From the NCBI GenBank assembly GCA_964495255.1, contig CAZBVC010000005.1:20496-84495 (forward strand): a stretch of DNA of 64,000 bases. The letters are read 5' to 3'. Position 1 is the first letter of the stretch; every line of letters begins with the position of its first letter. The notes beneath the pieces were generated by a model. The model saw only the letters and a program-made list of their open reading frames with translations, did not search any database and was not told where the DNA came from. This DNA comes from an uncultured Oscillospiraceae bacterium. Lineage in GTDB: Bacteria > Bacillota > Clostridia > Christensenellales > CAG-138. Both the position numbers and the translations under genes were made by a program. Shown piece by piece: positions 848 through 54,332 of this stretch.

Positions 848-1021
848 ATCGTTATCCTCAAACCTTTATAGATTGTGCAAACGGGAGCATCCGGTTCCAT
901 CATATCATATGGCGTGCCGCCGCGCCATGGGCGCGATAATGCGGATTGCTCCCTCGTGTCGGAACGAAGCCCCGCCCCACAAGGGGCGGGGCTTCGCATG
1001 CGTTTCGTATACGGTGTTCGA

Positions 1022-25734: not shown

Positions 25735-25817
25735 ACCATATCCGAAAAAACGTTTCTGTTCATGAGAAAACGCGCACGCTTATGTGACGTCGCGTTCTTC
25801 CCCTTTTTTTTGAAGTA

Positions 25818-25826
25818 TGCTATGAT
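25818..25826 (+). promoter_or_regulatory. Extended -10 element (TGcTATGAT) upstream of fbp
   Basis: TG at 25818-25819 and TATGAT at 25821-25826, preceded by a T-rich tract. It overlaps the ATG at 25822, which argues against that start codon. Confidence 0.4.
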
Positions 25827-25857
25827 ACAGAAAACCGTTCTTCGGAGGTATGGCATC

Positions 25858-27865: not shown

Positions 27866-28528
27866 TTACGCCGCCACGTTATGCAGAAGCAGAATCGCCG
27901 CGCAGAGCGCATATGTTCCGATCAACATCAGCGCCATACTGATAGCCCATTTGCCGCCTTTGTCGAACCCGTAAAAGTCGTCCCAGCCCTTTTTTTCGAT
28001 CGCGTCGGAGCAGCCGCTCGCATCAACTTTGCCTTCCCCGATAAAAACCACCATAACAAGGTACAGCACGCCGTAGACAAGCGTCGGCAGCAGACCGAGC
28101 AGCGTCCGCGCCCATGGAAGCGGCGCGCTTTTTTCCAAAAAACAGAACGAAACGACGGCGAGCAGCGGCCCGATCAGGTGCAGAAACAGTCCTTCGTTTG
28201 CGAACATGACCCCATAACCGGAGGACGGCCCCAGAAAAACCACGACCGTCAGAAACGTGACCGCAACCGCGACGGTTCCGACATACTTGATCAAAGCGGC
28301 CCAATCGGGAAGCGCCGCGCCGCCGTGCGACAGGAGCAAAGCGTCGCAAACGACGATTGTCAGCGCCGCCGCGCCCGAAAGCAGGTTGGAAAGCGTCGTG
28401 AAATAGCGAAAGGCGTGCGCGCCGCTTCCGACGTCCTTTTTGTTTCGGCGCACGGTCTGCACAACGGCGACGGTCGTCCAACAGGCGATAACGGCGTTGC
28501 AGAGCAGCGAAAGAATGATTTTGACCAT
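27866..28528 (-). CDS. Integral membrane protein (possibly Pr6Pr/AIG1-like family)
   Basis: Track ORF 27866..29296 trimmed to ATG 28528 (AAGGAGGG RBS), 220 aa. About 6 TM segments and an FRYFTTLSNLL motif. Confidence 0.6.
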   Translation of the reverse strand: MVKIILSLLCNAVIACWTTVAVVQTVRRNKKDVGSGAHAFRYFTTLSNLLSGAAALTIVVCDALLLSHGGAALPDWAALIKYVGTVAVAVTFLTVVVFLGPSSGYGVMFANEGLFLHLIGPLLAVVSFCFLEKSAPLPWARTLLGLLPTLVYGVLYLVMVVFIGEGKVDASGCSDAIEKKGWDDFYGFDKGGKWAISMALMLIGTYALCAAILLLHNVAA

Positions 28529-28684
28529 GATACCCTCCTTGATGCGGAACTGCCGATTTTCTCTATTGTAACATGTTTTTCGCCGCAAATTTCCTTTTTT
28601 CGCGGCGAACGCCATTTGGTTATCAATCGATTTGCCCGATGTGGTATAATCGTCACGGCGCAACGCGCATAGGGGGAGAAACGC

Positions 28685-29392
28685 ATGTATCAATACTTGT
28701 TGTGGGACGTTGACGGTACGATTCTTGATTTTTTGGCGGCGGAAGCATACGCGATCCGCACGCTGTTTGGAAAGTTCGGGCTCGGCGTTTGCACCGATGA
28801 AATGGTGCGCGCCTATTCGCAGATCAACGTAGAATTCTGGCAAGCGCTCGAACGAAACGAAATGACCAAGACGGAGATTCTGGTTGGCAGATTTCGCGCG
28901 TTTTTCGAGCGATACGGTATCGACCCGACGCTGGCGGAGCCCTTCAACCATGCTTATCAAACCGCGTTGGGCGACCATATCGTGTTCATCAGGGATGCGG
29001 AGGAGACGCTGCGCGCCGAAAAAGGACGGTATACGCTCGCCGCCGTGACCAACGGAACCAAGGTAGCACAGACCAAGAAACTTGCGCGGTCGGGGCTGGA
29101 TCAAATCTTCGACGCGGTGTTTATCTCCGAGGACGTCGGCTTTGAAAAGCCCAATGCGGCGTATTTCGAGACGGTTTTTCGCAACCTGGGCGTTACGGAT
29201 AAGCGCAGCGTCCTTCTGATCGGGGACTCGCTCACCGGCGATATGCGGGGCGCCGCGAATATGGGGATAGACGCCTGCTGGTTCAACCCGAACCACGCCG
29301 TCAACGCGCCGAACGTGCCGATCACCTACGAGATCGACGATTTAAGCAAGCTCGCGGCGATTTTGGAGCGTGACGCCGCGCGCACGTCTTAA
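28685..29392 (+). CDS. HAD-IA hydrolase, YjjG-like nucleotidase family
   Basis: Motif I DVDGT at residues 8-12, TNG (motif II), and GDSLTGDMRGAANMG (motif IV region). Confidence 0.8.
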   Translation: MYQYLLWDVDGTILDFLAAEAYAIRTLFGKFGLGVCTDEMVRAYSQINVEFWQALERNEMTKTEILVGRFRAFFERYGIDPTLAEPFNHAYQTALGDHIVFIRDAEETLRAEKGRYTLAAVTNGTKVAQTKKLARSGLDQIFDAVFISEDVGFEKPNAAYFETVFRNLGVTDKRSVLLIGDSLTGDMRGAANMGIDACWFNPNHAVNAPNVPITYEIDDLSKLAAILERDAARTS

Positions 29393-29481: not shown

Positions 29482-32400
29482 CTACGGCGTGACGGTGATC
29501 GCGATCGTCTGCGTTGCGCCGCCGTCCTTGGACGCGCAGGTGAGGAGGATCGTCTTTTCGGCGGTTACGCGCTTTGTCGTGACGACGCCATAGCTCGATA
29601 CGCTCGCGTAGGGCAGATCCTGCGGACGCAAAGACCAGGTTACTGTTTTTGACGTTGCGTTCGCGGGCGCAAGCGAAGCGCGGATCGTGAGCTGCTTTCC
29701 GCCCGTTACCGTTGACAGACCGGTTGCGGACGTAAGCGTTATGTCGCTGACCTTTCGCACGATCGATATCTTCGTCGTTATGCTTTTCCCGCTGCCGTCC
29801 GACGCCTTTGCCGTAATCGTCACCGTACCCGTGCGATAGTTGCCGTAGCGGTCGAGTTGCGCCGTCACCACGCCGTTTGCGTCCACAACGGCGATTGTGC
29901 TGCTGCTGCTCGACCAAAGCCATGCTTGCAGCGCGGTTGTCGGCAGGCTTTGCGCCGCGAGCGCGAGCGTCGTTTCGTTCGCCGTGAGGTTCAGCGTGAG
30001 CGTTTTTCCGCTGACGTTTGCGCCGCCCGCCGTGATCTGTACTGCCGTCGTTGACGGCAGGATCGTGATCGCCTGCGTCGCGGTGAGCGCCTTATTGTCG
30101 TCGGATACGACCGTTACCGTCACCTGCCGCGGCGCCGTTACCGCTTTTGCCGTCAGCACGCCCGCCGCGCTGATCGACGCATACGGCGCGTCGCCCGTAT
30201 GTAAGCGCCACGCGACCTTTTGGTTCGTCGGGAGATAACTCCCGAAGTTGGGCAGCAGCGTCAGCTGTCCGCCGCCGCGCGTCGTGAACGTGTTTGTTTT
30301 GGAGCGAATGCCGATTTCCTTTGCGTGCGCGAGCACCGTTACCTTGAAGCTCGCCGCTTTGCCGCTGCCGTCCTTCGCCTTGGCGGTGATCGTTACCGTA
30401 CCCGCTTTGACAAGGTGCAGCGTTCCGTCCTGTTCCATATAGGCCGCGCCGCTCGTGCTCGTCGGGCTCCAAACAACGGCGGGGTTCGCATCGGACGGAT
30501 AGATCGCGGTTTCGAGCGAAACGGTGGGGGAGTCGTTTTTGTCGATGACCAAAGTCGTATTCTCGATCGGTTGACCGCTGCGCGTAACGGACAGGTTCTC
30601 GGCGATCGGGTATATCGTTACGTCCATGGTTCCGAATTTGCCGCTGCCGTCCTTCGCGGTGGCATACACGGTGATTGTGACGGGTGTCGTGACGGCTTTC
30701 TTTGCCGTGAGAACGCCTGTTGCGCTGATTGACGCGACCGACGCGTCGGACAGCTCCCATTTCACCGACTTGCTCGTCGCGTCGGCGGGCAGCACAGCCG
30801 CCTTGAACGTCAGCGTTTTGCCCGCGGATACCGCGCTGCCGCCCGACAGCGTTACGCTCTGCGCCATGGTCACGATTTTGAGCGTGATCGTCGCCGTGCG
30901 CCCGCTCGATGTTGCCGTAATCGTGACCGAGCCGTTCCGTTTCAACGTTACAAGCCCGTTTGCGTCAACCGCAGCGTAGACCGAGCTGCTTGATTTCCAT
31001 GTTGCGGCCGCGTTTTCGGCGGAACCGAGCATGCGTGCGGAAAGCTGCACGGCGCCTTCGCTGCGCGCGTGAACGAGCGTTTTCTTCGTTACGATCGAGC
31101 CAAGGTCGTCCAGTATGTTGAGCAGCGTGTCGCTGGCGGGCAGAATGCGAACGTCATAGTTCGCGTACGCGCCGCCGTTGTCCGCCGCTTTCGCGAGAAT
31201 CGTCACCGTGTGCGGCTCGTATACGGTCTTTGCCGTAACTCTGCCCGCGCTCGATACGCTCGCGAACGCCGCGTCGGTCGGGTCGGATAAGCTCCATTGG
31301 ATCGTTTTGTTCGTCGGCATATTGGTGTATGCGGTTTTGAGTTGCAGATACTTGCCCGAGCGAATCGCGTTTAGACTCGGATCGTTCGTAATCGTCAGCC
31401 CCGTCATGAGCGTGCCGATGACGAGCGTCGTCGATGCGGATTGACCGCTGCCGTCCTTCGCCGTCGCCGTGATCGTGACCTTGCCCGCTTTTTTCGGCGT
31501 AACGACGCCGCTTTGATCCACCGTTGCGATCAGCGAGCTGCTCGTTTTCCAGGTTACGGTTTGGAAGGCGTCGGCGGGCTGCGCTTCGGCGGCAAGCGAG
31601 ATTGACGCCGTGCCGAGCGCGACGGGGTGGGTAACGCCGCTCCACAGCGCGCCTGCGCTGCGAATAACCAGCCGTTGAACCGTCGGGCGCAGCGTGATTT
31701 CAACGCTGTCGCTTGCCGTCGGGTTTGCCTTGACCGTTGCCGTAACCGTGATCGTTGTGCTTTCGGGCACGGCGCGCGTGGCGAGCTTACCCGTGCTCGA
31801 AATCGACGCGTAAGGCAGGGCGTTTTCGCTCAGGCTCCAAACAAGCGTTTTATCCGTCAAGGCGGCGTTGGTCGTTACGTCGTTTGTCAGTTGCAGACTC
31901 GCGCCGCCGCGCAGCTCGGTCGTTGCAGCGGCGATGTTCACTGCCTGCGCGAGCTTTGCAAATTGCAGCTTGACCGTCGCGGTCTTGTTGCTGCCGTCTT
32001 TCGCCTTTGCCGTCAGCGTAACCGTGCCCGCCTTGCCCTTGAAGCCGCTTATCGTAATCGTGCCGTCGCCGTGATCGGTGCATGTCGCATACGCGTTTGA
32101 AAGGTCGCTGTCCGTCCAAACGCAGGCTTGCGCCGCATCGGCGGGGTACAGCTCCGCATCGAGCGTCAGCTCCGTTACGTTTGGGTCGTTCAGGTCGAGG
32201 CATATGGTTTTGCCCGTTTCGTAAGCCTCGCCGCGCTTGATGGATAGGCTGTCAACGAGCGGTACGATCGTGATCTCGTGCTCGGCGCTTTCGCAGTTGC
32301 CGTCCTTTGCGATCGCCTTAACGCGAACCACGGTCTCCTGCGTGACCGCCTTCGCCGTGAGCAATCCCGTGCTCGAAAGCGCGGCGCAGGAGGTGTATTC

Positions 32401-33125
32401 GCCGTCCATATACCACGTTACGCCGAGGTTGTTCGGCGCGTCGCCCGTAAACGACGCCGTGAGCTGCGTCTTTTTGCCCGACGTGAGCTTTCCGCCCGCG
32501 CCGAGCGCGTCGCCGACAGTGAGCCCCTGCGAGAGCTTGACCACGTTGATTTTGACCGTCGCGGTCTTGTTGGAGCCGTCGGTGGTCGCAGCGGTTATAT
32601 TCGCCGTTCCGGTGCGGAGCGCGATGAAACGCAGCTCGCCGAACGTTTGGTCGTAATAGACCGATGCGACGGCGGGGTTGCTCGATACGATCTTAAAATC
32701 GCCATATGTTGCGCTCGGCTGCGTCTCGACGCCCATGATCAGCGCGTGCGCGTTCCCGTCTCCATATGGGATCAGGTTGTCGGCGTCGTTCAGATCGATC
32801 GACATCACGGCGGGCGCGGGCTCGCCGTCTTCGTCGGTAAAGAACACGCGCAGTGCGAGCGGCAGAATGCGAATCACCTTTTTAACCTGCATGGCGCTGA
32901 CACTCGGCGCAGAGCCGACAACGACGATGCTCTGTTCCTCCGTTACCGCTTTTGCCGTCACGTTGCCCTTCGCGTCGATTGCGGCGTACCGTTCGCCGCC
33001 CGCCTCGATCGTCCATACCGAGGCCGCGTCCGATACGTCCGCGCCCTTGGAGCTCGTTAGCTGCATATGGATCGATTTACCGGCGGTCACATACCAATCT
33101 CCCTGTATGCTCAACGAAACCAAGC
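29482..33125 (-). repeat. C-terminal array of roughly 13-14 diverged Big_2-type Ig-like domain repeats (protein-level repeat)
   Basis: Units of about 90 aa recur from ...GLVSLSIQGDWYVTAGKSIHMQL... to the C-terminus (...TQTIAITVTP). The DNA copies are diverged and not identical. Confidence 0.7.
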
Positions 33126-36100
33126 CGATCGACGCCCCGAAGAGCGGGCCTCCGAACGTCAAATTGCCGTGCTGCCATTCGGTTTCCTGCCCGTCGGGAT
33201 AGCATACGATAAAGTCGTCCGCGTTGCCGTAGAAGGCGTAATCGCCGAGATCCGACGGAGGATTGCCGAGAAAGTTGGCGATTCGCAGCTTGATGCATCC
33301 GTAAAACGCATAATTCTGTATCGAATCGACGTTTCTGCCGAACGTAACCGTTTCGAGCTGACGATAGCCCCGAAACGCGCCTTCCGCAATCGTAACGACG
33401 GGCTTTTGCCTGATCGTATCGGGAATCACGAGGTCGCGTATCGAGCGGTTTGTGCTGCCCGAAATAACGACGCTTTCCCCATCGGCGGACAGGTAATAGA
33501 CGAACCCGCTGTCCTCCGACCAAACGGCATACAGCGTCAGGCTGTCGCCCTCGACGGCGGAGAGATCGCAGGTTTGACCTCCCTGATACAGCGCGGTTTC
33601 CGCATCCTCGCTCGTCGCCCAGCCTTCGAAGATCGAGTTTTCCTTATTCGGCAGCACCGCGCTGAGGCTTGCATTCGCGCGATCCAATACGACTTGATCT
33701 GCGGGAACGGAGTTTGCGCCGTCCGCGCTGTAACGAATCGTCAGGGATGCGCCCACGCCCGTATCTTCAAACGCGGTCAGCGGGTATCCCTTGAAAAGGC
33801 CCGTATTCGTCGGATCCCAGCTTGCCTTTTGGGAGGCGGGATAATAGACGTGAACCGAGCTGCCGTAGGAAAACGTGCTTCCGTCGGAGAACGTGGGCTT
33901 TTCCCCGAGGAAGGTAATCGAAGTAAGTGTGCCGATCGCGAATGCATTGCTGCCGATCGAACGCACCTGCGCGGGGATGACCAAGGACGCGAGCTGCATG
34001 TCGGAGAAAGCATACCAGCCGATCGACGTCAGGCTGTTTGGCAGATTCAGCTCTCGGATATACGGATTGCCCGTAAAGGCATAGTCCGAGATGCTCGTTA
34101 CGCCGTCGGGAACGGTAAACGAGGCGTCCTTTTTGCCGTTCGGATAGGCAAGAAGCGTCGTGCCGCTCTTGTTGTAAAGAACGCCGTCGATCGAGCGGTA
34201 ATTCTCGCTTTCGTCGCTCACGTTGATGCGTTCCAGCGCGCTCATATTGGCGAAAATACCCGAGCCGGATCGGTCGGCGATCATGCGCACGCAGCTCGGA
34301 ATCATGATCGATTTCACGGTGTCGTTGTCAAACGACGGGACGCCCGTAAAGCCGTGTTCCGTGACCGAGCAATCGGGGAAGGTTTCGCAAACGTGGGAAG
34401 AATCGCCGTCATGGAAACAGATATATCGGAAAGAACGCAGAGACGCGACCGTTTTCCCGTTGATTTGGGACGGGATGATCAGCATTTCGCCCGTGCCCGA
34501 ATAGTCGTCGATTACGATCTCGTCGTTCGCAAGCTCGTCCGCGTAGATCTTGTTCCAAATCTCCGTTTTCCCGCTGTAAGTGTGGTAGGACAAGCCGCCG
34601 ATGACGCCCGCGCCCGCTTCCGACACGGTGCGCGACCAAACGGGGGTCAACGCGATGAGATCGCAGCTGCAATAGATCGTGTCGCCCGGCTGATAATCGA
34701 CCTGTCCGTCGTCGTCAAGCGACCAGCCGACAAACGTATAGCCCGCGCGCACGGGCGTAAACGTGTCAAGCGTGACCGTCAGCCCGATCAGCCCTCCCGC
34801 GCTGTTGAAACGGGGATCCCACTCGCCGCTTCCGTCGTCATAGGTTCCGTCCGATTTGATTTGGTCGTACAGAATGGTGCAAAGATAGGGATCCAGCACC
34901 GCGTGCAGCACGAGGTCATGGTTCACGTCGGCCGGAATCGCACCGCCGGGATAATAGATCGTTCCGTCGTCCGTTTCCCAATACAGAAAATCGTGGTATT
35001 GCGAGAAGGGAATCAGGTCGGAAATTATTTGCGCCAAATTATGGTGCTTGAGCCCTGCCGGGGGGACGTTCGTACAACCGGGCGCATCAAAAGAAATGGA
35101 ATAGAAGGGGGATTCGATCGAAAACAGACCGTAGTCAATGCGCTTCCGTTCCGTGGTCATTTCATCCTTCGCATAGATCGTGATTTTGTAAAAGCAGCCC
35201 GACGCAAGGCTGGAAAGATCGACATATTGGTTCAATACGGACTCTATCGAAATCTCGTATCCGTCAACGGCAACGGTTTTCTCGAAGTCAGGGATTTTTA
35301 TGGTGCTGCATTCGATCAGGACAGTTACTTCCTTCACTTTATAGTTGGATTTGATCGTTCCGCTGATGGTGAACGGATCGCCCCAAAGCAGCATTTTACG
35401 AGGCAAAACGATATTTTCACCGCGCAGATCCGTCTGAACGGCTTTGAAAACAAGGTTGTCCGCGTAAACATACAGACCCGCAAGCGAGCCGCTCTTGATC
35501 TTGACCCAGGCGTTTCCCTTGCTGTTTGTAACGGAGCATTCGGTTTCGATGGTATCGCCCGCGAGGATTGTTACGCCGCGCTGCGTCGCAATGTCCGTCG
35601 CCGTGGAAAACGGCTCGGATCGAACGGCGACGCCGTTTCGCTTAAAGGTGTATGCCGTCGTATCGGTCGCGGTTTCGGTCCAAGCATATTCCACGTTGCC
35701 CGAAAAGATATATTTATTTTGAAACGCTTCGCTGCCCGCGATATGGTACCATGTGCTGCCAAGCCTGTTGACCAGCTTATAGTCGAATTTGACCGTTTGA
35801 CCCTTGTGTGTCGTAATGCCGTACTGCGTGGTCAGATTGGTGCTGTTTGTCGAGTAGGGGCGCGACCAAACCGACACGCTGTCCTTGGTGAGCTTATAAA
35901 CGCCGGCGACCGTGCGATCGATGCTTCCCGAATAGTCGTATTCCGCGCCGTCGCTCGACCGGCAGAAGCCGTCCGAGCCATAGTCGTGCACATGGTCGAT
36001 CGACGGGCTGATCCAAACATAGCATTTGTTTTGCGCATATGTCCTGCCGTTGTCGTTAATCCAATCGTTGATGGTCGATATGGAGGCTTCCGCAATGTGA

Positions 36101-37788
36101 ATAATGTTTTTTTGTGGGCTGTTGCATTCGATATAGCCTACGGTGTCTCCCTCAACCTTATAGATAAAGATCGAATGCGAGCCGGCGCGCGAGCCGTCGA
36201 TTCGGCAAATATCGCCGGGCTTGACGCGGAAGTCGGCGGCAACCTGATTGACGCGTTCCCAATCGCCTACGACCTTTCCGTTGTCTGTATTCGTATCTCT
36301 CGGAAGCGTGCCGAATACGATTGTCGCGATGTACATGGAAAAGCCGGCGCATTCGATGGCGTTCCCCATGTTCAAGCCTGTGAAATGATTTGACGTTCCC
36401 GATGACGAACCGGTCAGGCAGCTCGTATAATCGTTCGCCGTGATGCTGTCGATCATGGAGGCGACGCTGTAATTCGCGTTCCAAAAAACCTGCGGAATGT
36501 TATTGCTGCCACCAAGCTTGCGCCCCTGAATGATATGCGCGTAATAGGCTTCCACGGTTTTTGTGACCTGTTCGCAGGTCGGATGCGGGTCGGGCGTTAT
36601 CGTCAGGCTGACGCGCTGTATGGCGTCGTTCACCGTGAGCTCCAGCGCCGCGCTTGCCGCGCCTGCATCCTGCGCCGTCGCGGTTATGGTCACGCTGCCG
36701 CCGCAAAGAGGCGTTACGAGCCCGTTTTCATCAACCGTCGCGATTGATTCGTCGCTGCTCGTCCAGGCAAGAGTCTTGTTTGCCGCGTCCTCGGGCAGCA
36801 CGGCGGCGGTCAGTTGCAGCGTCTGAGTCAGATCGACGCAATCGGCGTCGTCGGGCGCAGACAGCGTGATCGACGAAACAAGGATGGGTTCTTCGGGGTC
36901 GTCGTCGCCCGCGTCGGTCGGTTTTGCTTTTAGCGTGAAGTAGGCGTATCGCGTAATCGGCTCCCCGCCCGCCGCGACGGAGACGGCGCAGCGATAGAGG
37001 TCGTTCACGCCGAGCATGTCGTTCTCCGCCGTGAGCTTCAGCGCCCGCTTGGCTGCCGTATCGTTTATCGTTGGATCAAGATCGACATACTTGTCTGCGT
37101 TCTCGCTTTGCGCATCATATCGCTGCCAAATAAAGGAAACGGCGCCGTTTGTTTCATAGGTCGGCTCGAGCTCGATCTCGTCGCCCGCCGCGCTCTCGAT
37201 CTTGTAATGCACCGCGCCGTCCGCATCGATCGTGTCGCCGTCGGCAAATACGGTAAATGCAAACGCGAGCGTTTCCGTTTCGGCGGGCTCGGGCGCGTTC
37301 CCCGCCGCAACCGTAACGGTCAGTTCGCCGTATGCGCCGCTTCCGTCAGCCGCCGTTGCGCGGATCTTTGCGCTTCCCGCAGAGAGCGCCGTCACAAGTC
37401 CGTTTTCGTCAACCGTTGCGACCGCCAAAGCATCGCTTGTCCAGACAACGGCGGGATTCGTGGCGTCGCTCGGCAGCGCAGCAGCATCCAGCCGCAGCGT
37501 GTCGCCCACGGTGAGCGACATAGAAGCGTTTTCCTCGTGCGTTCCCACCGTGACGGAGACAACCGCGACCGTTTCGAGCGGCAAATCCTTCGCATCGGAT
37601 GGGTCTGCGGACGATTCGGGTTCGTCCTGCGTTTCCGTTGCGGCGGGCAGGCTGCAATCGCCGTCGTGTCCGTCGGGAAGGGTACAGCCCTCCGTCTGCG
37701 TACAGGCTTCGCCTTCCGCCATCGCGGAAACGGGCAGCATCGATAATACGAATACGACCGCAAGGAACAAAGAAAGAACGCGTTTCAT
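29482..37788 (-). CDS. Giant secreted multidomain surface/adhesin-like protein (2768 aa): Big_2 Ig-like repeats, papain-like Cys/His domain, SH3b-like, Listeria-Bacteroides (Flg_new) repeats, BspA-type LRRs
   Basis: Track ORF trimmed to ATG 37788 (GGAGG RBS). Signal peptide MKRVLSLFLAVVFVLSMLPVSAMA. Many ...A-x-V-x-P-x-(D/N)A-x-N/D-K-x-(V/L)-x-W-x-S(S/D)... Big_2-type units. GW/W-ending Flg_new-like units (e.g. GYTFVGWSLDDDG...TPVW). LRR_5-like blocks (IPxxVxxIxxxAFxxC). Confidence 0.9.
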   Translation of the reverse strand: MKRVLSLFLAVVFVLSMLPVSAMAEGEACTQTEGCTLPDGHDGDCSLPAATETQDEPESSADPSDAKDLPLETVAVVSVTVGTHEENASMSLTVGDTLRLDAAALPSDATNPAVVWTSDALAVATVDENGLVTALSAGSAKIRATAADGSGAYGELTVTVAAGNAPEPAETETLAFAFTVFADGDTIDADGAVHYKIESAAGDEIELEPTYETNGAVSFIWQRYDAQSENADKYVDLDPTINDTAAKRALKLTAENDMLGVNDLYRCAVSVAAGGEPITRYAYFTLKAKPTDAGDDDPEEPILVSSITLSAPDDADCVDLTQTLQLTAAVLPEDAANKTLAWTSSDESIATVDENGLVTPLCGGSVTITATAQDAGAASAALELTVNDAIQRVSLTITPDPHPTCEQVTKTVEAYYAHIIQGRKLGGSNNIPQVFWNANYSVASMIDSITANDYTSCLTGSSSGTSNHFTGLNMGNAIECAGFSMYIATIVFGTLPRDTNTDNGKVVGDWERVNQVAADFRVKPGDICRIDGSRAGSHSIFIYKVEGDTVGYIECNSPQKNIIHIAEASISTINDWINDNGRTYAQNKCYVWISPSIDHVHDYGSDGFCRSSDGAEYDYSGSIDRTVAGVYKLTKDSVSVWSRPYSTNSTNLTTQYGITTHKGQTVKFDYKLVNRLGSTWYHIAGSEAFQNKYIFSGNVEYAWTETATDTTAYTFKRNGVAVRSEPFSTATDIATQRGVTILAGDTIETECSVTNSKGNAWVKIKSGSLAGLYVYADNLVFKAVQTDLRGENIVLPRKMLLWGDPFTISGTIKSNYKVKEVTVLIECSTIKIPDFEKTVAVDGYEISIESVLNQYVDLSSLASGCFYKITIYAKDEMTTERKRIDYGLFSIESPFYSISFDAPGCTNVPPAGLKHHNLAQIISDLIPFSQYHDFLYWETDDGTIYYPGGAIPADVNHDLVLHAVLDPYLCTILYDQIKSDGTYDDGSGEWDPRFNSAGGLIGLTVTLDTFTPVRAGYTFVGWSLDDDGQVDYQPGDTIYCSCDLIALTPVWSRTVSEAGAGVIGGLSYHTYSGKTEIWNKIYADELANDEIVIDDYSGTGEMLIIPSQINGKTVASLRSFRYICFHDGDSSHVCETFPDCSVTEHGFTGVPSFDNDTVKSIMIPSCVRMIADRSGSGIFANMSALERINVSDESENYRSIDGVLYNKSGTTLLAYPNGKKDASFTVPDGVTSISDYAFTGNPYIRELNLPNSLTSIGWYAFSDMQLASLVIPAQVRSIGSNAFAIGTLTSITFLGEKPTFSDGSTFSYGSSVHVYYPASQKASWDPTNTGLFKGYPLTAFEDTGVGASLTIRYSADGANSVPADQVVLDRANASLSAVLPNKENSIFEGWATSEDAETALYQGGQTCDLSAVEGDSLTLYAVWSEDSGFVYYLSADGESVVISGSTNRSIRDLVIPDTIRQKPVVTIAEGAFRGYRQLETVTFGRNVDSIQNYAFYGCIKLRIANFLGNPPSDLGDYAFYGNADDFIVCYPDGQETEWQHGNLTFGGPLFGASIGLVSLSIQGDWYVTAGKSIHMQLTSSKGADVSDAASVWTIEAGGERYAAIDAKGNVTAKAVTEEQSIVVVGSAPSVSAMQVKKVIRILPLALRVFFTDEDGEPAPAVMSIDLNDADNLIPYGDGNAHALIMGVETQPSATYGDFKIVSSNPAVASVYYDQTFGELRFIALRTGTANITAATTDGSNKTATVKINVVKLSQGLTVGDALGAGGKLTSGKKTQLTASFTGDAPNNLGVTWYMDGEYTSCAALSSTGLLTAKAVTQETVVRVKAIAKDGNCESAEHEITIVPLVDSLSIKRGEAYETGKTICLDLNDPNVTELTLDAELYPADAAQACVWTDSDLSNAYATCTDHGDGTITISGFKGKAGTVTLTAKAKDGSNKTATVKLQFAKLAQAVNIAAATTELRGGASLQLTNDVTTNAALTDKTLVWSLSENALPYASISSTGKLATRAVPESTTITVTATVKANPTASDSVEITLRPTVQRLVIRSAGALWSGVTHPVALGTASISLAAEAQPADAFQTVTWKTSSSLIATVDQSGVVTPKKAGKVTITATAKDGSGQSASTTLVIGTLMTGLTITNDPSLNAIRSGKYLQLKTAYTNMPTNKTIQWSLSDPTDAAFASVSSAGRVTAKTVYEPHTVTILAKAADNGGAYANYDVRILPASDTLLNILDDLGSIVTKKTLVHARSEGAVQLSARMLGSAENAAATWKSSSSVYAAVDANGLVTLKRNGSVTITATSSGRTATITLKIVTMAQSVTLSGGSAVSAGKTLTFKAAVLPADATSKSVKWELSDASVASISATGVLTAKKAVTTPVTITVYATAKDGSGKFGTMDVTIYPIAENLSVTRSGQPIENTTLVIDKNDSPTVSLETAIYPSDANPAVVWSPTSTSGAAYMEQDGTLHLVKAGTVTITAKAKDGSGKAASFKVTVLAHAKEIGIRSKTNTFTTRGGGQLTLLPNFGSYLPTNQKVAWRLHTGDAPYASISAAGVLTAKAVTAPRQVTVTVVSDDNKALTATQAITILPSTTAVQITAGGANVSGKTLTLNLTANETTLALAAQSLPTTALQAWLWSSSSSTIAVVDANGVVTAQLDRYGNYRTGTVTITAKASDGSGKSITTKISIVRKVSDITLTSATGLSTVTGGKQLTIRASLAPANATSKTVTWSLRPQDLPYASVSSYGVVTTKRVTAEKTILLTCASKDGGATQTIAITVTP

Positions 37789-37861
37789 CTGTTTGCCTCC
37801 AAAGAAAAATGCGACGTCTGCGGGGAGGGAGAACGATTGATCTCCACATTTATACATTAAT

Positions 37862-39733: not shown

Positions 39734-39857
39734 AGGAACCTCCAATTTACAAATCCATACCCTTATCCTATGAACGGAAGCGGTCAATGCGTGTAAGCGG
39801 GAAAACGCACGCAAAAGCGCGCATCCACATAGGATAGGATGCGAGGGAGGCTGTGGT

Positions 39858-40058
39858 ATGCTTGAAACGGTCTATGGAAAATGCTGCGGCGGAAAGAAGG
39901 GAAGGAAGCGCTGTTATCAGAAAAGCGCGTTCGGATTCGTCTGCATTGCGGCAGGCGTAATCCTGCTTTTTTGCTGCACGCCGTGCTGGTTTATCGCGTT
40001 TCTCATCGCCTGCGCGCTGCTGATTCTCGGATGCGCGCTGCTGCTTTGCAAACGCTAG
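39858..40058 (+). CDS. Small cysteine-rich hydrophobic protein (66 aa, 10 Cys)
   Basis: GGGAGG RBS 7 nt upstream of the ATG. Basic N-terminus with CC, then two hydrophobic segments studded with Cys (LLFCCTPCWFIAFLIACALLILGCALLLC). Confidence 0.5.
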   Translation: MLETVYGKCCGGKKGRKRCYQKSAFGFVCIAAGVILLFCCTPCWFIAFLIACALLILGCALLLCKR

Positions 40059-40223
40059 GAAAACAAAAAAAACGCCGAAGCCGATAAAGCTTTCCGCGTC
40101 GTCAACGACAACGCCGGGGCAGCGCATAACGTCGTCGAGACGCCCCGCCGCGTTTTCGGCGTTCGTCACGCCGTTTTCATCCGCCCGCCGAAAAAACGCG
40201 CGGAGCTTCTCTTTCATAATCGT

Positions 40224-40898
40224 TTATTGCTTGGAAATCTCCGTTCCGAACACAAAGCGCGTAAACAGCGTTTTTGTGCGCTCCGCGCCGAGCGCCTTGA
40301 CAAACGCGTCGGTGGAAGGGCCTCCGTTTTGCAGAAGCCCGCTGACGTAAGAAGCCGCATTAGCCTGCTTTTCGGCGCTTTTTTGCGCGTTTAGCAGCGG
40401 CTTTTCCTGCGCGAGCGTCAAATACGCGTCAAGCGCGGCGAAGAACACTTCGTTCAGGCGCGGCAGAGCGGTCTTTTTTGTCTTTTTGGCAAAGGAAGCG
40501 GACAGCTTGATGGGATCGTACCAGTGCTCGCCCAAGTCGTGATCGGGCAAACAGGCGACGCTTTCCTTTACGGCAAGCAGCGCGCAGTCGTCAAACGCGG
40601 CGGGTTCCAGCATCGTGTCGTAATACTCCGTAAGCACCGTATGGTTGCCCATGGCGGAGATGCCGTCGTAGGAAAACAGCGGTACGTCGCGCAGATACGC
40701 GTTGATGACGAGCGTATCCATGCGCATGAGCCCCGCCATCGCCTTGCCGCGCAGAATCGACACGCTGCCGAGCCCTTCGGCAAAGCAGCAGGTAAGCTCC
40801 ACCGTCAGCGGGAACGCCTTAAAATGCGCGTATTCGCCTGCGTCCCGCGGGGTTATGGGGAAGGCGGCGGAGATTCTTTCTAACGCCTCCCGCATCAT
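40224..40898 (-). CDS. Hypothetical protein with by-eye resemblance to ferredoxin-dependent bilin reductases (PcyA/PebA-type fold)
   Basis: 224 aa. LTVELTCCF...MDTLVINAYLRDVPLFSYDGISA... parallels PcyA IENRCYQ...[25 protein letters not shown]. The C-terminus ...FVKALGAERTKTLFTRFVFG parallels ...[20 protein letters not shown]. The comparison is from memory and was not searched. Confidence 0.45.
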   Translation of the reverse strand: MMREALERISAAFPITPRDAGEYAHFKAFPLTVELTCCFAEGLGSVSILRGKAMAGLMRMDTLVINAYLRDVPLFSYDGISAMGNHTVLTEYYDTMLEPAAFDDCALLAVKESVACLPDHDLGEHWYDPIKLSASFAKKTKKTALPRLNEVFFAALDAYLTLAQEKPLLNAQKSAEKQANAASYVSGLLQNGGPSTDAFVKALGAERTKTLFTRFVFGTEISKQ

Positions 40899-41533
40899 GC
40901 CTTCGCTCCTTTTTGGAGCGCGTCGGGCTCTTCAAGCCCCGCTTTATGCAGGATGAGCGAGCCGAACAGCAGCGCGCCCTGCCCCAGAATGTTCGTACCC
41001 TGCGCGATCCAGTTCATGGACGCCTGCGTAAAGTCGCGCGAGGAGAGATAGCCCATCGTAAGCATAAACACGCACGACAGGAGGAACAGTACGATCGCGA
41101 GCGGGCGCTTCATGCGCTTTGCGGCAACGCAAAGACAGCCGCAGATGCCGAATGTGCCGATCACGTTCAAAACGACAAAGATCATACTGCTTTCATATAC
41201 GAAAGGCGCGGCGACGGCGTAGGCGGTGTTGCCCTGCTTATGCGTCAAAAGCGCGACGAGCGCGATGAAAGCAAGCAGGAAGCCCGTCGCTTGCAGGGGG
41301 AAGAAGCAGCGGTTGAGCGCGACGAAATCGCATATGTTCAGCGCGTACAGCAGCTTCCAGAGCGCCTTATACGCACCCGCGATGATAATCATCAGCGTGC
41401 CCGCGGCAAACAGCGCGAACGCGCCCTTGCTCATTTTGTTGTACAGGTCGCGCATGAGCAAGACCGCCGTCGCGGCAAACAGCAATACAGGGATAAAGTC
41501 TACAAGCGCCATGGGCAAATTGATTCCGTTCAT
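40895..41533 (-). CDS. Integral membrane protein, unknown function (about 6 TM)
   Basis: Track ORF 40895..41755 trimmed to ATG 41533 (212 aa). Its stop overlaps the start of the next gene (ATGA). Confidence 0.65.
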   Translation of the reverse strand: MNGINLPMALVDFIPVLLFAATAVLLMRDLYNKMSKGAFALFAAGTLMIIIAGAYKALWKLLYALNICDFVALNRCFFPLQATGFLLAFIALVALLTHKQGNTAYAVAAPFVYESSMIFVVLNVIGTFGICGCLCVAAKRMKRPLAIVLFLLSCVFMLTMGYLSSRDFTQASMNWIAQGTNILGQGALLFGSLILHKAGLEEPDALQKGAKA

Positions 41534-41585: not shown

Positions 41586-42380
41586 TTATTTCTTTGCCTC
41601 TTTGGCAAGATGATAGATCGGCAAAAGCGGAAGAATGATCGGCGTTTTGTCGGCATAGGCGCGGTATGCGGGCAGATTCCCGTAGCGCTCCTCCTGCCGC
41701 TTTTCGAGCCGTTCGGCGCCGTTGAACATGATGAACACGATGGCGACGTAGGCAAGGCTCGCCATCAGCCATTGTCCCGGGCCGGAAAGCGCGGTCAGCC
41801 CGCCGATCAATACGCCTGTCCAAAAGAGGATCTCGCCAAAGTAGTTCGGGCAGCGAACGATCTTGTATAAGCCCTTTGTGGCGACCATGTTCGGCTCGAG
41901 CTTCTTCTGCGCGCTTTTTTGCTGATCCGCAATCGTTTCGACGATCAGTGCGATCAGGCTGACGCAAACGCCGATCCAAGGCAGAACGGCGTCGCCCGCG
42001 CCGTTATATTGGCGATAGAACACGGGGCTTGCCTGCGCGACGTACAGCGCCGCGACACAAAGCCAGATGAACGCCTTAACGAAGATCGGCATGGCTTTTT
42101 CCGCGGTGGTCGCTTCGGTCAGCGTTTTGCGGTAGGCGGCGTTTTTGATTTCGCGGTAGAGCAGAAAGCCGGACAGCCGCGCGCCGTATACGATGAACAG
42201 CGCGCATTGGACAACATGCACAAGCTGCATTTGCCTGCCGAAGAGAACGATCAGCGCAACGCCTATGCCCGATATGGCGAAACCATAGCCGATGGAGAGA
42301 AAGTATACGAATTTGTAGAACCCGACGCTCGAAAGCACCGCCGCGACGACGGCGAGGATCCAAAGATATTCCCAACCCAT
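41586..42380 (-). CDS. DUF1295 / steroid 5-alpha-reductase-like membrane protein
   Basis: 264 aa polytopic protein. The C-terminal motif KGLYKIVRCPNYFGEILFWTG is typical of this family. Confidence 0.75.
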   Translation of the reverse strand: MGWEYLWILAVVAAVLSSVGFYKFVYFLSIGYGFAISGIGVALIVLFGRQMQLVHVVQCALFIVYGARLSGFLLYREIKNAAYRKTLTEATTAEKAMPIFVKAFIWLCVAALYVAQASPVFYRQYNGAGDAVLPWIGVCVSLIALIVETIADQQKSAQKKLEPNMVATKGLYKIVRCPNYFGEILFWTGVLIGGLTALSGPGQWLMASLAYVAIVFIMFNGAERLEKRQEERYGNLPAYRAYADKTPIILPLLPIYHLAKEAKK

Positions 42381-42415: not shown

Positions 42416-43255
42416 TCAAAAGCTCTTTTTGATGTATTCGGCAAAGCTGTGCTCGCCATAGCAAACGTCGCCCACCATGGGCTCGGTCAGCGTCCACTTG
42501 CTGAAACGAATAATCGCTTCCTTGCCGTTCTTTTTGAGCTTGTTGACGAACGCGAGCACGTCGAAGAGGAACACAGGCGCGCGCTTGATAACGGCTTGCT
42601 TGCCCGCCGCGGCAAAGCACATGCGCGCGATTTCCTCATAGGTGTAGGTTTCCTTGCCGCCGATGGAGACGGTTTGGTTCTCGTCGCCCATGTGCTTAAC
42701 GATATAGTCCGCGAAGTCGGGCGTGTCGATGACGTTCGCGCTGACGGGGTCGTTGCCCAAAAGTGTGACCTCGCCCTTTTCGATCATGGGCTTAAACACC
42801 TTGACGATGTCGTAAAAATATCCCGTCGGGCGATAGATGATATAGGGGACGCCGCTCTTTTTCAGCTCCTCCTCCATGAGATATTTCGCGTGCAGCATGG
42901 GCACCTTGGGCGCCTTGTCCGCTTTTAGCACGGAGATGTAAACGAATTTCTTCACGCCTGCGCGCTTTGCCTCGTTGAGCAGGTTCAGGTTGCCCTGATA
43001 ATCAATTTGATAATTGGTCACGGTCGCGGAGGTCTTGGTTAACCCTACCGTCGTGACGACCGCGTCCGCGCCGTCGCAAAGCCCTTTCAGCGCATCGGGA
43101 TCGGTCACGTCCAGCTTACGGAACGTATACTTGCCGACAAGACCCAAATCCCGCTCGATCATGTCCGCCGCGACGACCTCGTGCCCCGCTGCGAGCAGAG
43201 CGCGGAAGATGTCGCTGCCCAGGTTGCCGTATGCCCCTGCCAATACGATTTTCAT
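42416..43255 (-). CDS. NmrA-like/atypical SDR NAD(P)H-binding protein (DVR/BciA- and BLVRB-like branch)
   Basis: MKIVLAGAYGNLGS Rossmann motif. The region RPTGYFYDIVKVFKPMIEKGEVTLLGND...IGGKETYTYEEIA... and the C-terminus YGEHSFAEYIKK resemble divinyl-chlorophyllide 8-vinyl reductase as I recall it. Confidence 0.7.
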   Translation of the reverse strand: MKIVLAGAYGNLGSDIFRALLAAGHEVVAADMIERDLGLVGKYTFRKLDVTDPDALKGLCDGADAVVTTVGLTKTSATVTNYQIDYQGNLNLLNEAKRAGVKKFVYISVLKADKAPKVPMLHAKYLMEEELKKSGVPYIIYRPTGYFYDIVKVFKPMIEKGEVTLLGNDPVSANVIDTPDFADYIVKHMGDENQTVSIGGKETYTYEEIARMCFAAAGKQAVIKRAPVFLFDVLAFVNKLKKNGKEAIIRFSKWTLTEPMVGDVCYGEHSFAEYIKKSF

Positions 43256-43460: not shown

Positions 43461-44387
43461 TCACTTACCCTTTTCCTTGCTGCGCTTGTCGTTGATGATA
43501 TCCATATGCTCCGCGGTGATAAGCGTTACGTCATGCGCGCGCGCCCATTCCACGCAGCCTTTGAGCGCGGTGGGAAGGAAGATGCGTGGAACCTTGATGA
43601 GCTTCATGCAGGCTTCGTCCGTAAACTTGATCACGTCGTCCGCACGGCCCGCCGCGTATTTGACGGATTCGAGGCTCGCTTCGCGGACGGGCAGAAGCTC
43701 GGGGCGCGGGCGGCGATGGCGCGTATACCAGAAGTTCTTGCTGTCGCGATAGCCATAGTCCACGGGAACGCGCGGGAAGTCGCCCGCCTTGACGCCGTTT
43801 AGGATCGCGCTGTAATAGCGCTGTTTCATTAAGATTTTGTCCACGCGCAGGATAAAATGCGCGCCGAACGGGGATGTGATGCCGTTAAAGTCGTGATATG
43901 GGGCGGGATAGCCGTTCAGCTCGCCCGGCTTGTCGTTTTCCGCGCCGTCCAGCTCGCGCATCCAGGTGCACTCCATGACCTGAAACGATTCCGCGATGAC
44001 CAGCGGGAATTTCTCGTCCGGATGCTCCGCCGCCATTTGACCCTCTTCGAGCGTATAGATGCAGCCTTTCATTTTCTCGGCGGGCTTGTCGCCGGGGAAT
44101 CCCATGCGAACGGCTTCCTTAAAGAAGCGCTTGTCGTCGGGGATGAAGTTGAGCGCGCATTTGCCGTAGCGCAAGAGATGCTGGGCGGTGTTGGAGGAGT
44201 TGCGCGTGCAGAGCAGCATGGCGTAATAGTCTCGCCCCGCGATGTAGTACGGCGCAACGAGCGAATACGGCCCGAGCGACGTGCTGCCGTCCTCCGCAAC
44301 GGTGCTGACCATTACGGTCGGCATGGGGAAGAACGCAGACGTTTGGTAGAAGTTATCCACGATTCGGAGATTCTGAAAGCTGGACAT
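43461..44387 (-). CDS. Flavin-reductase-like split-barrel domain protein with C-terminal extension
   Basis: 308 aa. FPMPTVMVSTVAEDGSTSLGPYSLV...CALNFIPDD matches the Flavin_Reduct-type pattern. Confidence 0.65.
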   Translation of the reverse strand: MSSFQNLRIVDNFYQTSAFFPMPTVMVSTVAEDGSTSLGPYSLVAPYYIAGRDYYAMLLCTRNSSNTAQHLLRYGKCALNFIPDDKRFFKEAVRMGFPGDKPAEKMKGCIYTLEEGQMAAEHPDEKFPLVIAESFQVMECTWMRELDGAENDKPGELNGYPAPYHDFNGITSPFGAHFILRVDKILMKQRYYSAILNGVKAGDFPRVPVDYGYRDSKNFWYTRHRRPRPELLPVREASLESVKYAAGRADDVIKFTDEACMKLIKVPRIFLPTALKGCVEWARAHDVTLITAEHMDIINDKRSKEKGK

Positions 44388-44418: not shown

Positions 44419-44961
44419 TCAGGATCGCTTTTCGTTCAGAACGCGTGCGCAAATACGCAGAAACGCGTCAAACTTCAAATCGGAATCACCCGCGCAGGTG
44501 AGGACGTTCTCCGCGAAGAATACGTCCAAGGGCTCCGTTTCATGCGGATGAAAGCGCAAAAGCACGGGGCGGATGCAGGCGGAAAGCTGGCGAACAAGCA
44601 GGTTATGTCGGCTGCCGTATTCCGTTTTTGCGCCGGGCGAAAACGTATAGCCCGACCAAACGGCGCGGTATTCGCCGTAAAAGCGGGATACGCCGCCGTA
44701 AAGCGCCGAAAGCGCGTCAAGTACGTTTTTGGTCTCCTCGCAGGCGGACTGCATACAGCCCAGCTCGCGGTTCCAATCCGCAAGCATGACGGACGCAACG
44801 AGCATATCCTTGGACGGGAAATAGTTATAGATCGTTCCGACGGCGACGCCGCACGCGCGCGCAACGCTGCGGATGCCAAGGGCGGCATAACCGCGACATA
44901 GCAGCTCCGTTTTCGCGGAGGACAGGATGGATTCGCGCAGATTTTCAATTCGCTTCGGCAT
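44419..44961 (-). CDS. TetR/AcrR family transcriptional regulator
   Basis: Track ORF trimmed to ATG 44961. HTH region GIRSVARACGVAVGTIYNYFPSKDML. Confidence 0.85.
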   Translation of the reverse strand: MPKRIENLRESILSSAKTELLCRGYAALGIRSVARACGVAVGTIYNYFPSKDMLVASVMLADWNRELGCMQSACEETKNVLDALSALYGGVSRFYGEYRAVWSGYTFSPGAKTEYGSRHNLLVRQLSACIRPVLLRFHPHETEPLDVFFAENVLTCAGDSDLKFDAFLRICARVLNEKRS

Positions 44962-45005
44962 AGATAGACCCTCTCGGCCCGTCGTTGTACGAACGTTCAA
45001 AGTTC

Positions 45006-45026: not shown

Positions 45027-45055
45027 AGTGTATGCACATTACGTTTCATTGTCAA
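45027..45055 (-). promoter_or_regulatory. Putative promoter of the TetR (44961) transcription unit
   Basis: Minus strand: TTGACA (45055-45050), 17-nt spacer, TACACT (45032-45027). Confidence 0.5.
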
Positions 45056-52512: not shown

Positions 52513-52644
52513 GCTTTGTTACCTCGATTGCATTTATTGCATTTCGTTTTTTTCGTTCTCTATCATACACGCTTTCTCCGCGCTTTTCAAATGGATAAGA
52601 ACGCTTCTTCCGACATAGAGTGTTTCGTAAGGAGCGTGAACGTT

Positions 52645-53367
52645 ATGGCAGACGAAATGAACCTGAATCCGTTTACCTCGCGCGAGCCGCAGGGGCAAAG
52701 CGGAAGGCGTTCGGCGCAGTATGCGGCATATACGCGCAGAACCTCGGCGCAGCGCCGCGCGGGAAAACCCCGAGCGGGCAGTATGTGGGCAAAGATCGCC
52801 ATCTGCATCGCGCTGCTTGCCGTCGCGCTGCTTGCGGAGTCGCTCATGCTGCGCGGCGGCAAGAGAAATACCGCTTCGCCCAAAACGGAGGAGAAAACCG
52901 TTGCGGCAAGCGTGGACGGAGCGGGCGAAACGGAATCGGGCGACGAGGGCGAAACGCTCGGGCGGCTCCGATTTGTCGGCGCGAGCGGGGTCAAGAGCGT
53001 GTTTGCCGTGTCGCAGCGCTGGGATATGCCCGTCGCCGCCTATACAGCCGCAAAGACGATCGAGGACGACACCACGCTGTATATCAAGGCGGAGGCGGGG
53101 GAACAGATTCGCGCAAGCGCGGCGGGCGAGGTGCGAACGGTCGGTTCGGACGAGGTTTACGGCGCGTATGTGCGTGTCGTCAGCGGAAGCGACGTGGAAA
53201 CGATATATGCGCATATAGACGGCGTTTGCGTCGAGGAGGGGCAGCCGGTTTTGGCGGGCGATCTGCTCGGCACGGTCTGCGCGGACGGGCAGCTGTATGT
53301 TTCCGTATCGGTGGGCGGCGCGCCTGTCGATCCAAGCGCGTATTTGAACCTTCAAGCAGATGAATAG
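52645..53367 (+). CDS. spoIVFA: SpoIVFA-like membrane protein with degenerate LytM/M23 domain
   Basis: Track ORF trimmed to ATG 52645 (AAGGAG upstream). One TM helix. The C-terminal M23-like domain lacks the HxH/HLH metal motifs (QLYVSVSVGG where HLHFE is expected). It overlaps the spoIVFB-like gene. Confidence 0.65.
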   Translation: MADEMNLNPFTSREPQGQSGRRSAQYAAYTRRTSAQRRAGKPRAGSMWAKIAICIALLAVALLAESLMLRGGKRNTASPKTEEKTVAASVDGAGETESGDEGETLGRLRFVGASGVKSVFAVSQRWDMPVAAYTAAKTIEDDTTLYIKAEAGEQIRASAAGEVRTVGSDEVYGAYVRVVSGSDVETIYAHIDGVCVEEGQPVLAGDLLGTVCADGQLYVSVSVGGAPVDPSAYLNLQADE

Positions 53368-54262: not shown

Positions 54263-54332
54263 CCGAACGCGTCTCTTGTGGTAAACTTCGATTGCGGGTA
54301 AGCGTGTTTGCCCGAAAACAGGCGCAAGGACG

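Follow-up and report, generated by a model that had tools for sequence, protein, structure and literature searches.

What does a protein with the fold of a bilin reductase do in an anaerobic bacterium of the gut? Ferredoxin-dependent bilin reductases (FDBRs) are known as chromophore makers of phototrophs, of their phages and of a few aerobic heterotrophs. The question is raised by one open reading frame (ORF) on a 64,000-nucleotide stretch of the genome of an uncultured Oscillospiraceae bacterium (assembly GCA_964495255.1, contig CAZBVC010000005.1, positions 20,496 to 84,495; the whole stretch is referred to here as the window). A previous inspection of the letters alone (the sequence-only reading) had proposed that this ORF encodes an FDBR-like protein in a gut-type anaerobe. 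Structure prediction, structural search and profile comparison agree with this proposal, and it is near certain that the protein is a genuine, deeply divergent member of the fold superfamily of FDBRs and red chlorophyll catabolite reductases (RCCRs). The gene is the following:

40224..40898, minus strand: FDBR/RCCR-fold protein of 224 residues, assigned from the ORF, the AlphaFold2 model, Foldseek, hhalign and relatives that match PF05996.

In the ORF listing the frame is initiated by ATG, and a 223-residue protein called in public assemblies (P0001) is identical to the window protein from its second Met onward. Neither Pfam-A nor NCBIfam gave a match for the window protein, even with the limit set at E <= 10, and a sequence search of the PDB returned nothing meaningful. 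A word-indexed search, in turn, recovered 118 homologous clusters (33-86% identity, about 216-224 residues), all of them unnamed or annotated as hypothetical, which originate from metagenome-assembled genomes (MAGs) of Oscillospiraceae, Ruminococcaceae or Clostridia. GC content is uniform over the region of the gene, and tblastn against plasmid and phage collections gave no matches, so that there is no sign of mobility. It should be noted that the window has a GC content of 55-62% and abounds in spurious overlapping ORFs, which is what might speak for a chance ORF or a chance resemblance in GC-rich sequence. Such an explanation is, however, hardly credible, and was rejected, in view of the hundreds of conserved homologues with invariant motifs, the size of the family, the very high confidence of the structural model and the significant fold and profile matches.

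The AlphaFold2 model, for which an alignment of 42 relatives was used as input, has a pLDDT of 96.4 and a pTM of 0.93, and has antiparallel strands in its central part and, after them, long helices at the C-terminus, i.e. the alpha/beta/alpha sandwich of the FDBR/RCCR superfamily. When the model was compared with the PDB by Foldseek, 44 matches were found at E <= 1e-3, and no unrelated fold was among them: every one is an FDBR, an RCCR or a PcyA-type subunit of the algal Ycf2/Orf2971-FtsHi complexes (8xks_P and 8xqw_H). The lowest E-values were those of GtPEBB (2.8e-9), tomato HY2 (4.3e-9) and the PcyA proteins of Nostoc and Synechocystis (from 6e-9), followed by PebA (1e-7), RCCR (3e-7 to 2e-5) and PebS (2e-6). 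Over PebB, HY2, PcyA, PebA, RCCR and PebS together, E-values ran from 2.8e-9 to 2.5e-5. TM-scores were 0.6-0.78 at 10-18% identity, the best matches reaching 0.75-0.78 at 13-15%. The first fold outside the FDBRs and RCCRs was that of coproporphyrinogen oxidase (CPO), at E 3e-3 (range 3e-3 to 0.2).

The profile-profile comparison that the sequence-only reading had proposed as a check led to the same result. An hhalign alignment of 235 family members with eight FDBRs (Synechocystis PcyA and seven phage PcyA, PcyX and PebS sequences) extended over 212 columns, with a probability of 94.6% and an E-value of 1.4e-8. The Synechocystis PcyA sequence used is 100% identical to chain 2D1E_A, and its numbering was confirmed by the chains of the E76Q and D105N mutants. 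In addition, 12 of the 42 relatives match PF05996 (Fe_bilin_red) at E <= 1. P0102, at 41% identity with the window protein, matches this family over its full length with 32.6 bits, against a gathering threshold of 31, and P0100 scores 28.8 bits; the window protein itself is below the threshold, and its Pfam membership is therefore transitive only, via these relatives. Compared with the FDBRs of PF05996 (PcyA, PcyX, PebA, PebB, PebS and HY2), the gut Clostridia protein shares the fold (TM 0.75-0.78) and a similar length, and the PLFxxD segment with the central Asp, a W...I.FS segment and the C-terminal ...G...LF tail align, whereas sequence identity is only 13-16% and the Pfam threshold is not reached.

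The family is large. An exhaustive profile search of 1.84 billion representatives yielded 716 clusters at 50% identity with E <= 1e-3, 247 of them at E <= 1e-30. In a scan that took one genome for each GTDB species, at least 451 were found to encode a relative. Host taxonomy and source were read from the 80 best loci of these genomes, 77 of which are labelled as MAGs. Their hosts are labelled Oscillospiraceae, Lachnospiraceae, Christensenellales or unclassified Clostridia/Eubacteriales, the exceptions being one Bacilli and one unclassified genome, and all the named sources are gut, rumen or faeces (goat, deer, yak, horse, chicken and human). The protein defines, among the loci examined, a large clade of animal-gut and rumen Clostridia.

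Some members depart from the common architecture. P0254, P0255 and P0240 (locus L100 6001-6825) carry an N-terminal transmembrane anchor preceded by five to six Lys/Arg residues; they keep D78 and E91 (numbering of the window protein), whereas the GGPSTD motif is GGISTD in them and the HWYD motif AWYD. The distribution of charges around the anchor predicts that the FDBR-like domain of such members, at least of P0254 and P0255, would be extracellular.

We then asked which of the residues used by known FDBRs are present. Three positions are needed for what follows:

40665..40667, minus strand: codon (gac) of D78, the equivalent of PcyA Asp105 in the PLFsyD alignment.
40716..40718, minus strand: codon of D61, which sequence alignments without gaps place opposite PcyA His88 and an Asn of PEBB.
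40626..40628, minus strand: codon of E91, on the strand that follows D78, an acidic residue near-invariant in the family and specific to it, located by conservation and hhalign.

The segment P73-L-F-S-Y-D78 lies opposite P100-L-F-G-C-D105 of PcyA in hmmsearch, hhalign and MAFFT --add alike, as had been proposed by eye when SYDGI was placed opposite GCDIV. The position is Asp in 226 of the 235 relatives, and D78 corresponds to the central acidic residue of catalytic FDBRs (Asp105 in both PcyA and PebS). The same inspection had noticed that His88 of PcyA is not His in the window protein, and this holds true, but the register in which it had placed MDTLV opposite ILHCV is one residue off. In hhalign, in MAFFT and in an independent phmmer alignment of P0102 with GtPEBB, the residue at this position is the acidic D61, and not T62; the GtPEBB residue opposite D61 is Asn. 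No gaps occur in the three alignments between the anchor G56-L57/G83-L84 and the PLF anchor, and the segment has equal length in both families. The equivalent of His88 thus appears to be D61 rather than T62, even though the DSSP strand limits would also be compatible with T62; either way, the residue is not His. Asp or Glu occupies the D61 position in 199 of the 235 relatives (85%).

The other donors of known FDBRs are not there. PcyA His74 lies opposite S47, and Glu76 opposite L49, where the family consensus is Met, so that the PcyA proton-donor pair His88 and Glu76 is missing. The same is true of the second catalytic Asp of the PebS/PebA/PebB/HY2 type: the Asp of the 'DP' motif of PebS and PEBB is aligned with G193 (G193-P194) in the invariant GGPSTD motif. 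The family differs from the FDBRs, therefore, in having Asp/Glu for His88, Met/Leu for Glu76 and Gly for the 'DP' Asp. Further along the alignment, PcyA Val225 lies opposite A198 and Trp154 opposite the invariant W126, and the C-terminal tails align (...LFTRFVFG with ...YMSQVLFD of PcyA), which bears out the family-like tail noted by eye.

On the other hand, the 235 relatives share features of their own. On the strand that comes after D78, E91 and Y93 are near-invariant, residues 125-128 form an H-W-Y-D motif, and K138, K177 and K201 are near-invariant as well; E91 and the H-W-Y-D motif set the family apart from PcyA and the other FDBRs. E91 is Glu in 225 of the relatives; hhalign places it opposite PcyA Ala118, and it would therefore have no PcyA counterpart, judging from the strand register. 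The near-invariant residues W126-Y127-D128, K138, K177, K201 and G192-G193-P belong to the loop and the helices lying over the pocket of FDBRs. In PcyA, the sheet face of Asp105 is the one that carries the bilin. By strand alternation, S76, T87, E91 and Y93 would lie on the same face as D78, and D61 would do so only if the ungapped alignment with His88 holds.

More information comes from the genomic context, which the sequence-only reading had overlooked and which, together with the existence of a family of hundreds of clusters, is decisive. The FDBR-like gene is the last of six co-directional genes, which form a conserved, TetR-regulated operon:

45027..45055, minus strand: promoter-like TTGACA-17-TACACT directly upstream of the TetR gene (10/12 in a consensus scan, a pattern match only).
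44419..45000, minus strand: TetR-family regulator, the first gene of the operon (PF00440 at 3.5e-13).
43461..44387, minus strand: Flavin_Reduct-like split-barrel protein of 308 residues (PF01613 at 6e-4, below cutoff).
42416..43255, minus strand: NmrA-like / NAD_binding_10 protein, an atypical short-chain dehydrogenase/reductase (Pfam).
41586..42380, minus strand: DUF1295 / steroid-5-alpha-reductase-like membrane protein (PF06966 at 7e-30, PF02544 at 3e-5).
40895..41533, minus strand: membrane protein of 212 residues with six helices (100% identical to P0267; AlphaFold2).

The conservation of the neighbours was assessed by tblastn of the window proteins against 88 related loci. The gene of the six-helix membrane protein adjoins the FDBR-like gene in 70 of the 88, and the DUF1295, NmrA-like and flavin-reductase-like genes were found in 68, 62 and 56 loci, respectively, with nearly constant offsets; many of the misses are contig ends. 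The six-gene order is kept in 56-70 of the 88 loci, over a range of 41-60% identity of the FDBR-like protein. The neighbours are better conserved than the FDBR-like protein itself (the flavin-reductase-like gene, where present, is 63-90% identical). The TetR gene has the same position in L001, L004, L098 and L099. The stop of the six-helix gene and the start of the FDBR-like gene share 4 nt (ATGA), and this overlap recurs across the related loci, in 70 of which the FDBR-like gene is the last one.

Among the partners, the flavin-reductase-like protein has a marginal PDB match to the FMN-binding protein 1eje, and the DUF1295 protein a weak match to 7c83. The nearest PDB entries of the NmrA-like protein are YtfG/QOR2, triphenylmethane reductase and NDUFA9. 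The possibility that it is a bilin reductase of the ChuY or BLVRB type was considered and dismissed, since neither was matched at E <= 0.01, QOR2 and triphenylmethane reductase being closest. The membrane protein, predicted by AlphaFold2 as six long helices (pLDDT 83.7), belongs to no Pfam or NCBIfam family, and Pfam scans of 30 homologues gave no consistent family; in the PDB, a fold search found only chance-level bundles of the rhodopsin and G-protein-coupled receptor kind (E >= 0.077). With 3902 clusters at 90% identity, far more than the FDBR-like family has, it stands for a large family of membrane proteins of its own that is still uncharacterised. Its mechanical ORF reaches 41755 from a TTG, the conserved start being the ATG at 41533.

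The module made of the TetR, flavin-reductase-like, NmrA-like, DUF1295 and six-helix genes, which encodes three reductase-type proteins, is widespread (L098 and L099 are examples) and occurs also without the FDBR-like gene, as in L098. In a subfamily that is 34% identical (P0110; L006-L008), the FDBR-like gene lies directly 3' of a PAP2-family membrane phosphatase gene, which replaces the six-helix and DUF1295 genes. For members outside the operon, the neighbours are housekeeping or unrelated genes and give no functional clue. Downstream of the FDBR-like gene, an ORF for a 66-residue, Cys-rich hydrophobic peptide (39858-40058, plus strand) overlaps one of 149 residues (39768-40217, minus strand), and public gene calls disagree, L095 and L097 having the 66-residue gene and L096 the 149-residue gene.

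Haem oxygenase, BBAG globin, V4R, phytochrome, cyanobacteriochrome and lyase domains were looked for in the operon, in those ORFs of the window that were scanned with Pfam and in the genes called in eight related loci, and none was seen; the coupling to haem oxygenase and a bilin acceptor that marks an FDBR pathway is, in these places, not seen. Likewise, there was no gene of the ChuW or BilR type in the operon, the scanned ORFs or the related loci, and no gene of tetrapyrrole synthesis among the scanned ORFs of the window. In two unrelated loci, L001 and L004, URO-D-family genes (PF01208) occur a few kb from the operon, and they are absent near the operon of the window. In L001 they are accompanied by B12-binding and pterin-binding genes. 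These URO-D-family genes probably resemble corrinoid methyltransferase systems, and not haem synthesis, and their association with the operon is probably coincidental.

Elsewhere, the window carries genes of sugar metabolism, one for an aldehyde:ferredoxin oxidoreductase and one for a very large surface protein:

23335-25608, minus strand: aldehyde:ferredoxin oxidoreductase (AFOR_N/C).
25762-27810, plus strand: Firmicute-type fructose-1,6-bisphosphatase.
29482-37857, minus strand: ORF of 2791 residues with Big_2, BspA-type leucine-rich repeat, Listeria-Bacteroides repeat and hyaluronate-lyase-like domains.

The first two fit a ferredoxin-using anaerobic Firmicute, and the third is probably a giant cell-surface adhesin or enzyme. 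Five ORFs of 379-620 residues had no Pfam match at E <= 1e-5, namely 875-2737 (plus strand), 12954-14744 (plus strand), 27866-29296 (minus strand), 52534-53673 (minus strand) and 53180-54427 (minus strand), the cutoff being 1e-3 for 27866-29296 and 52534-53673. In a sequence as GC-rich as this one, spurious antisense ORFs may account for some of them, and genes not yet characterised for others.

An FDBR-type fold outside phototrophs had been considered unusual in the sequence-only reading, but this view is outdated, because FDBR-like proteins of heterotrophs (named pre-1 to pre-3) were described in 2023 (Rockwell et al. 2023, PMC10151467) and characterised in 2026 (Frascogna et al., PMC13446030). 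Like the gut family, these pre-PcyAs have the FDBR fold in non-photosynthetic bacteria, lack His88 and Glu76, and carry an acidic residue at the Asp105 position. They differ in their hosts, which are Proteobacteria, Myxococcota, Acidobacteria, Planctomycetes and similar, and in their gene clusters, where haem oxygenase, BBAG globins, V4R and iron-sulphur proteins accompany the conversion of biliverdin into phytochromobilin or phycoerythrobilin (PMC10151467, PMC13446030). None of these partners is present in the operon of the gut family, which consists instead of membrane and NAD(P)H/flavin reductase-type genes in anaerobic hosts. It has been pointed out that His88 and Glu76 are specific to PcyA, and that at the His88 position pre-2 proteins have Asn, pre-3 proteins Thr, and pre-1 proteins neither (PMC10151467). 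The loss of His is therefore the rule rather than evidence of a new chemistry. It had been argued that a changed set of proton donors implies a different substrate; a different substrate is indeed plausible, and what makes it so are the genomic context and the altered pocket, not the missing His.

Firmicutes and Clostridia are mentioned neither in the main texts of PMC10151467 and PMC13446030 nor in the supplement of the 2023 paper, and our search of the literature on bilin reductases in Clostridia and on DUF1295 operons found nothing relevant. However, a 2026 phylogeny contains two newly found, uncharacterised and unstable clades whose hosts are not named, so specialists may have seen the gut family earlier. 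It is conceivable, though improbable, that the gut family is the 'archae-FDBR', the early branch for which workers on FDBRs have called.

Three other systems invite comparison. RCCR has the same fold with similar Foldseek scores, the likeness being by fold alone, and reduces a linear tetrapyrrole catabolite with electrons from ferredoxin and without a cofactor, in a degradative rather than a chromophore-making role. It differs in being plant or algal, in its length of about 270-320 residues, and in that its substrate requires the oxygenase PAO, which is not expected in anaerobes. HemF/CPO is a distant member of the same fold with a much weaker similarity; CPO is a dimer whose active site lies on the other side of the sheet (PMC13446030), and it requires O2. 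Finally, BilR and BilV, of the Old Yellow Enzyme family, reduce bilirubin (PMC10769871, PMC13252198, PMC13526984). They share with the gut family the habitat and hosts among gut Clostridia and, if the family is linked to bile pigments, as we hypothesise, the reductive bile-pigment chemistry, whereas their flavin/iron-sulphur fold is unrelated and the window has no BilR-like gene. The enzyme that converts urobilinogen into stercobilinogen was still unknown in mid-2026 (PMC13278186, PMC13526984), and has been tentatively tied to Lachnospiraceae. It is conceivable, if improbable, that the family reduces bile pigments of the host with electrons from ferredoxin and forms, with the four-protein operon, an anaerobic, haem-oxygenase-independent branch of the FDBRs that performs an unassigned step of bilin catabolism, e.g. 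the conversion of urobilinogen into stercobilinogen, or the reduction of biliverdin or anaerobilin.

What, then, may the protein do? The reading that we favour, tentatively and with a confidence that stops short of an even chance, is that of a cofactor-free reductase or protonating enzyme, which would act on a flat, conjugated, carboxylated ligand at the membrane together with its operon partners. The ligand would be bound between the beta-sheet and the C-terminal helices, as in FDBRs, with its carboxylates held by the near-invariant K138, K177 and K201, and would be reduced or protonated without a cofactor of the enzyme's own. Electrons would come from ferredoxin or flavodoxin, and protons from D78, D61 and possibly E91. 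The ligand would be passed to or from the six-helix partner and the other reductases, the proteins being under TetR control. Most plausibly, it would be a linear tetrapyrrole derived from host or diet, or a related breakdown product. This is the most economical guess, because every characterised relative of the FDBR/RCCR/CPO fold binds tetrapyrroles (PMC13193486), and because bacteria of gut and rumen are the only ones in which the family was found here. Most likely, an imported pigment-like molecule is handled, rather than a chromophore made. A role in the conversion of biliverdin into a phytobilin is very unlikely, considering that there is no source or acceptor of biliverdin nearby, that the hosts are strict anaerobes, and that changes are seen at three of the four proton-donor positions known.

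Several observations weigh against the enzyme that we favour. The remaining proton donors of known FDBRs are absent (L49 for Glu76, G193 for the 'DP' Asp), the propionate ligands of PcyA are not conserved in the alignment, and the placing of D61 and E91 on the pocket side of the sheet, from strand register, is a tentative one. The gene is optional, L098 having the first four structural genes of the operon without it, and conversely it stands alone in some Lachnospiraceae (L024, L036 and L040), straight after L21-L27-obg-yhbY-nadD-yqeK-rsfS. The NmrA-like neighbour is akin to quinone and dye reductases, unlike ChuY or BLVRB. Lastly, if the domain of P0254 and P0255 is extracellular, as predicted, ferredoxin would not be available to it. 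The optional gene, the NmrA-like neighbour, the unconserved propionate ligands and the anchored relatives keep two other explanations alive.

According to one of these, which is unlikely but has to be taken seriously, the protein is a non-catalytic subunit that binds or escorts a ligand: the fold would hold a hydrophobic or tetrapyrrole ligand, or dock on the six-helix protein, and the chemistry would be left to the other enzymes of the operon. The conserved start/stop overlap with the six-helix gene, the dispensability of the FDBR-like gene in some operons and the probably extracellular, membrane-anchored relatives are all consistent with it, and so are the PcyA-type subunits of the Ycf2/Orf2971-FtsHi complexes and the pre-3 variants that bind cyclic tetrapyrroles (PMC13446030). 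A passive pocket, however, is not what the near-invariant sheet acids D61, D78 and E91, with Y93, H125 and D128, look like; they suggest catalysis or a proton relay, and the genomes in which the FDBR-like gene is alone also speak against such a subunit. The other explanation, a rather doubtful one, sees in the protein a reductase or isomerase for a conjugated, lipid-like substrate that is not a tetrapyrrole (a quinone, polyene, isoprenoid, steroid, bile acid or conjugated fatty acid), serving a membrane-associated detoxification or modification. It would fit the neighbours, i.e. the steroid-5-alpha-reductase-like DUF1295 protein (DUF1295-type proteins have been described as ene-reductases; PMC8597850), the NmrA-like protein with its likeness to quinone and triphenylmethane reductases, and a TetR regulator, which is typical of responses to hydrophobic ligands; the pairing of the distant subfamily with a PAP2 lipid phosphatase also fits. 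It has against it that the characterised members of the fold, FDBR, RCCR and CPO, all act on tetrapyrroles (PMC13193486), that the cofactor-free radical mechanism of FDBRs depends on the extended pi system of the substrate, and that the three invariant lysines suggest a ligand with two or more carboxylates. As for a classical FDBR, similar to the pre-PcyAs, that would make a phytobilin from biliverdin for a photoreceptor or a globin, the common fold and central Asp and the one relative (P0102) that passes PF05996 are in its favour. It is nevertheless most improbable: the haem oxygenase, BBAG, V4R, phytochrome and cyanobacteriochrome genes that should go with it are missing from the operon, from the scanned ORFs of the window and from the called genes of the eight related loci, Glu76, His88 and the 'DP' Asp are all absent, and an O2-dependent haem oxygenase is not expected in strict anaerobes of the gut.

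The cofactor-free enzyme at the membrane thus remains our preferred, if tentative, interpretation. What is new here is the scale of the family and its genomic context, and the family is a large, habitat-specific variant of a known fold family. In it the catalytic Asp is retained, the pocket has been rebuilt with acidic residues, and the partnership with membrane and reductase proteins is conserved. The finding also exposes a widespread five-gene operon, which includes a six-helix membrane protein with no recognisable fold relative. The family is a candidate for bile-pigment or chlorophyll-catabolite reduction steps that are still unassigned in the gut microbiome, a proposal that is speculative but testable. 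With several hundred clusters, seen here only in anaerobic Clostridia of gut and rumen, it would add a new habitat to those of the FDBR/RCCR superfamily and, probably, a role that is new and catabolic.

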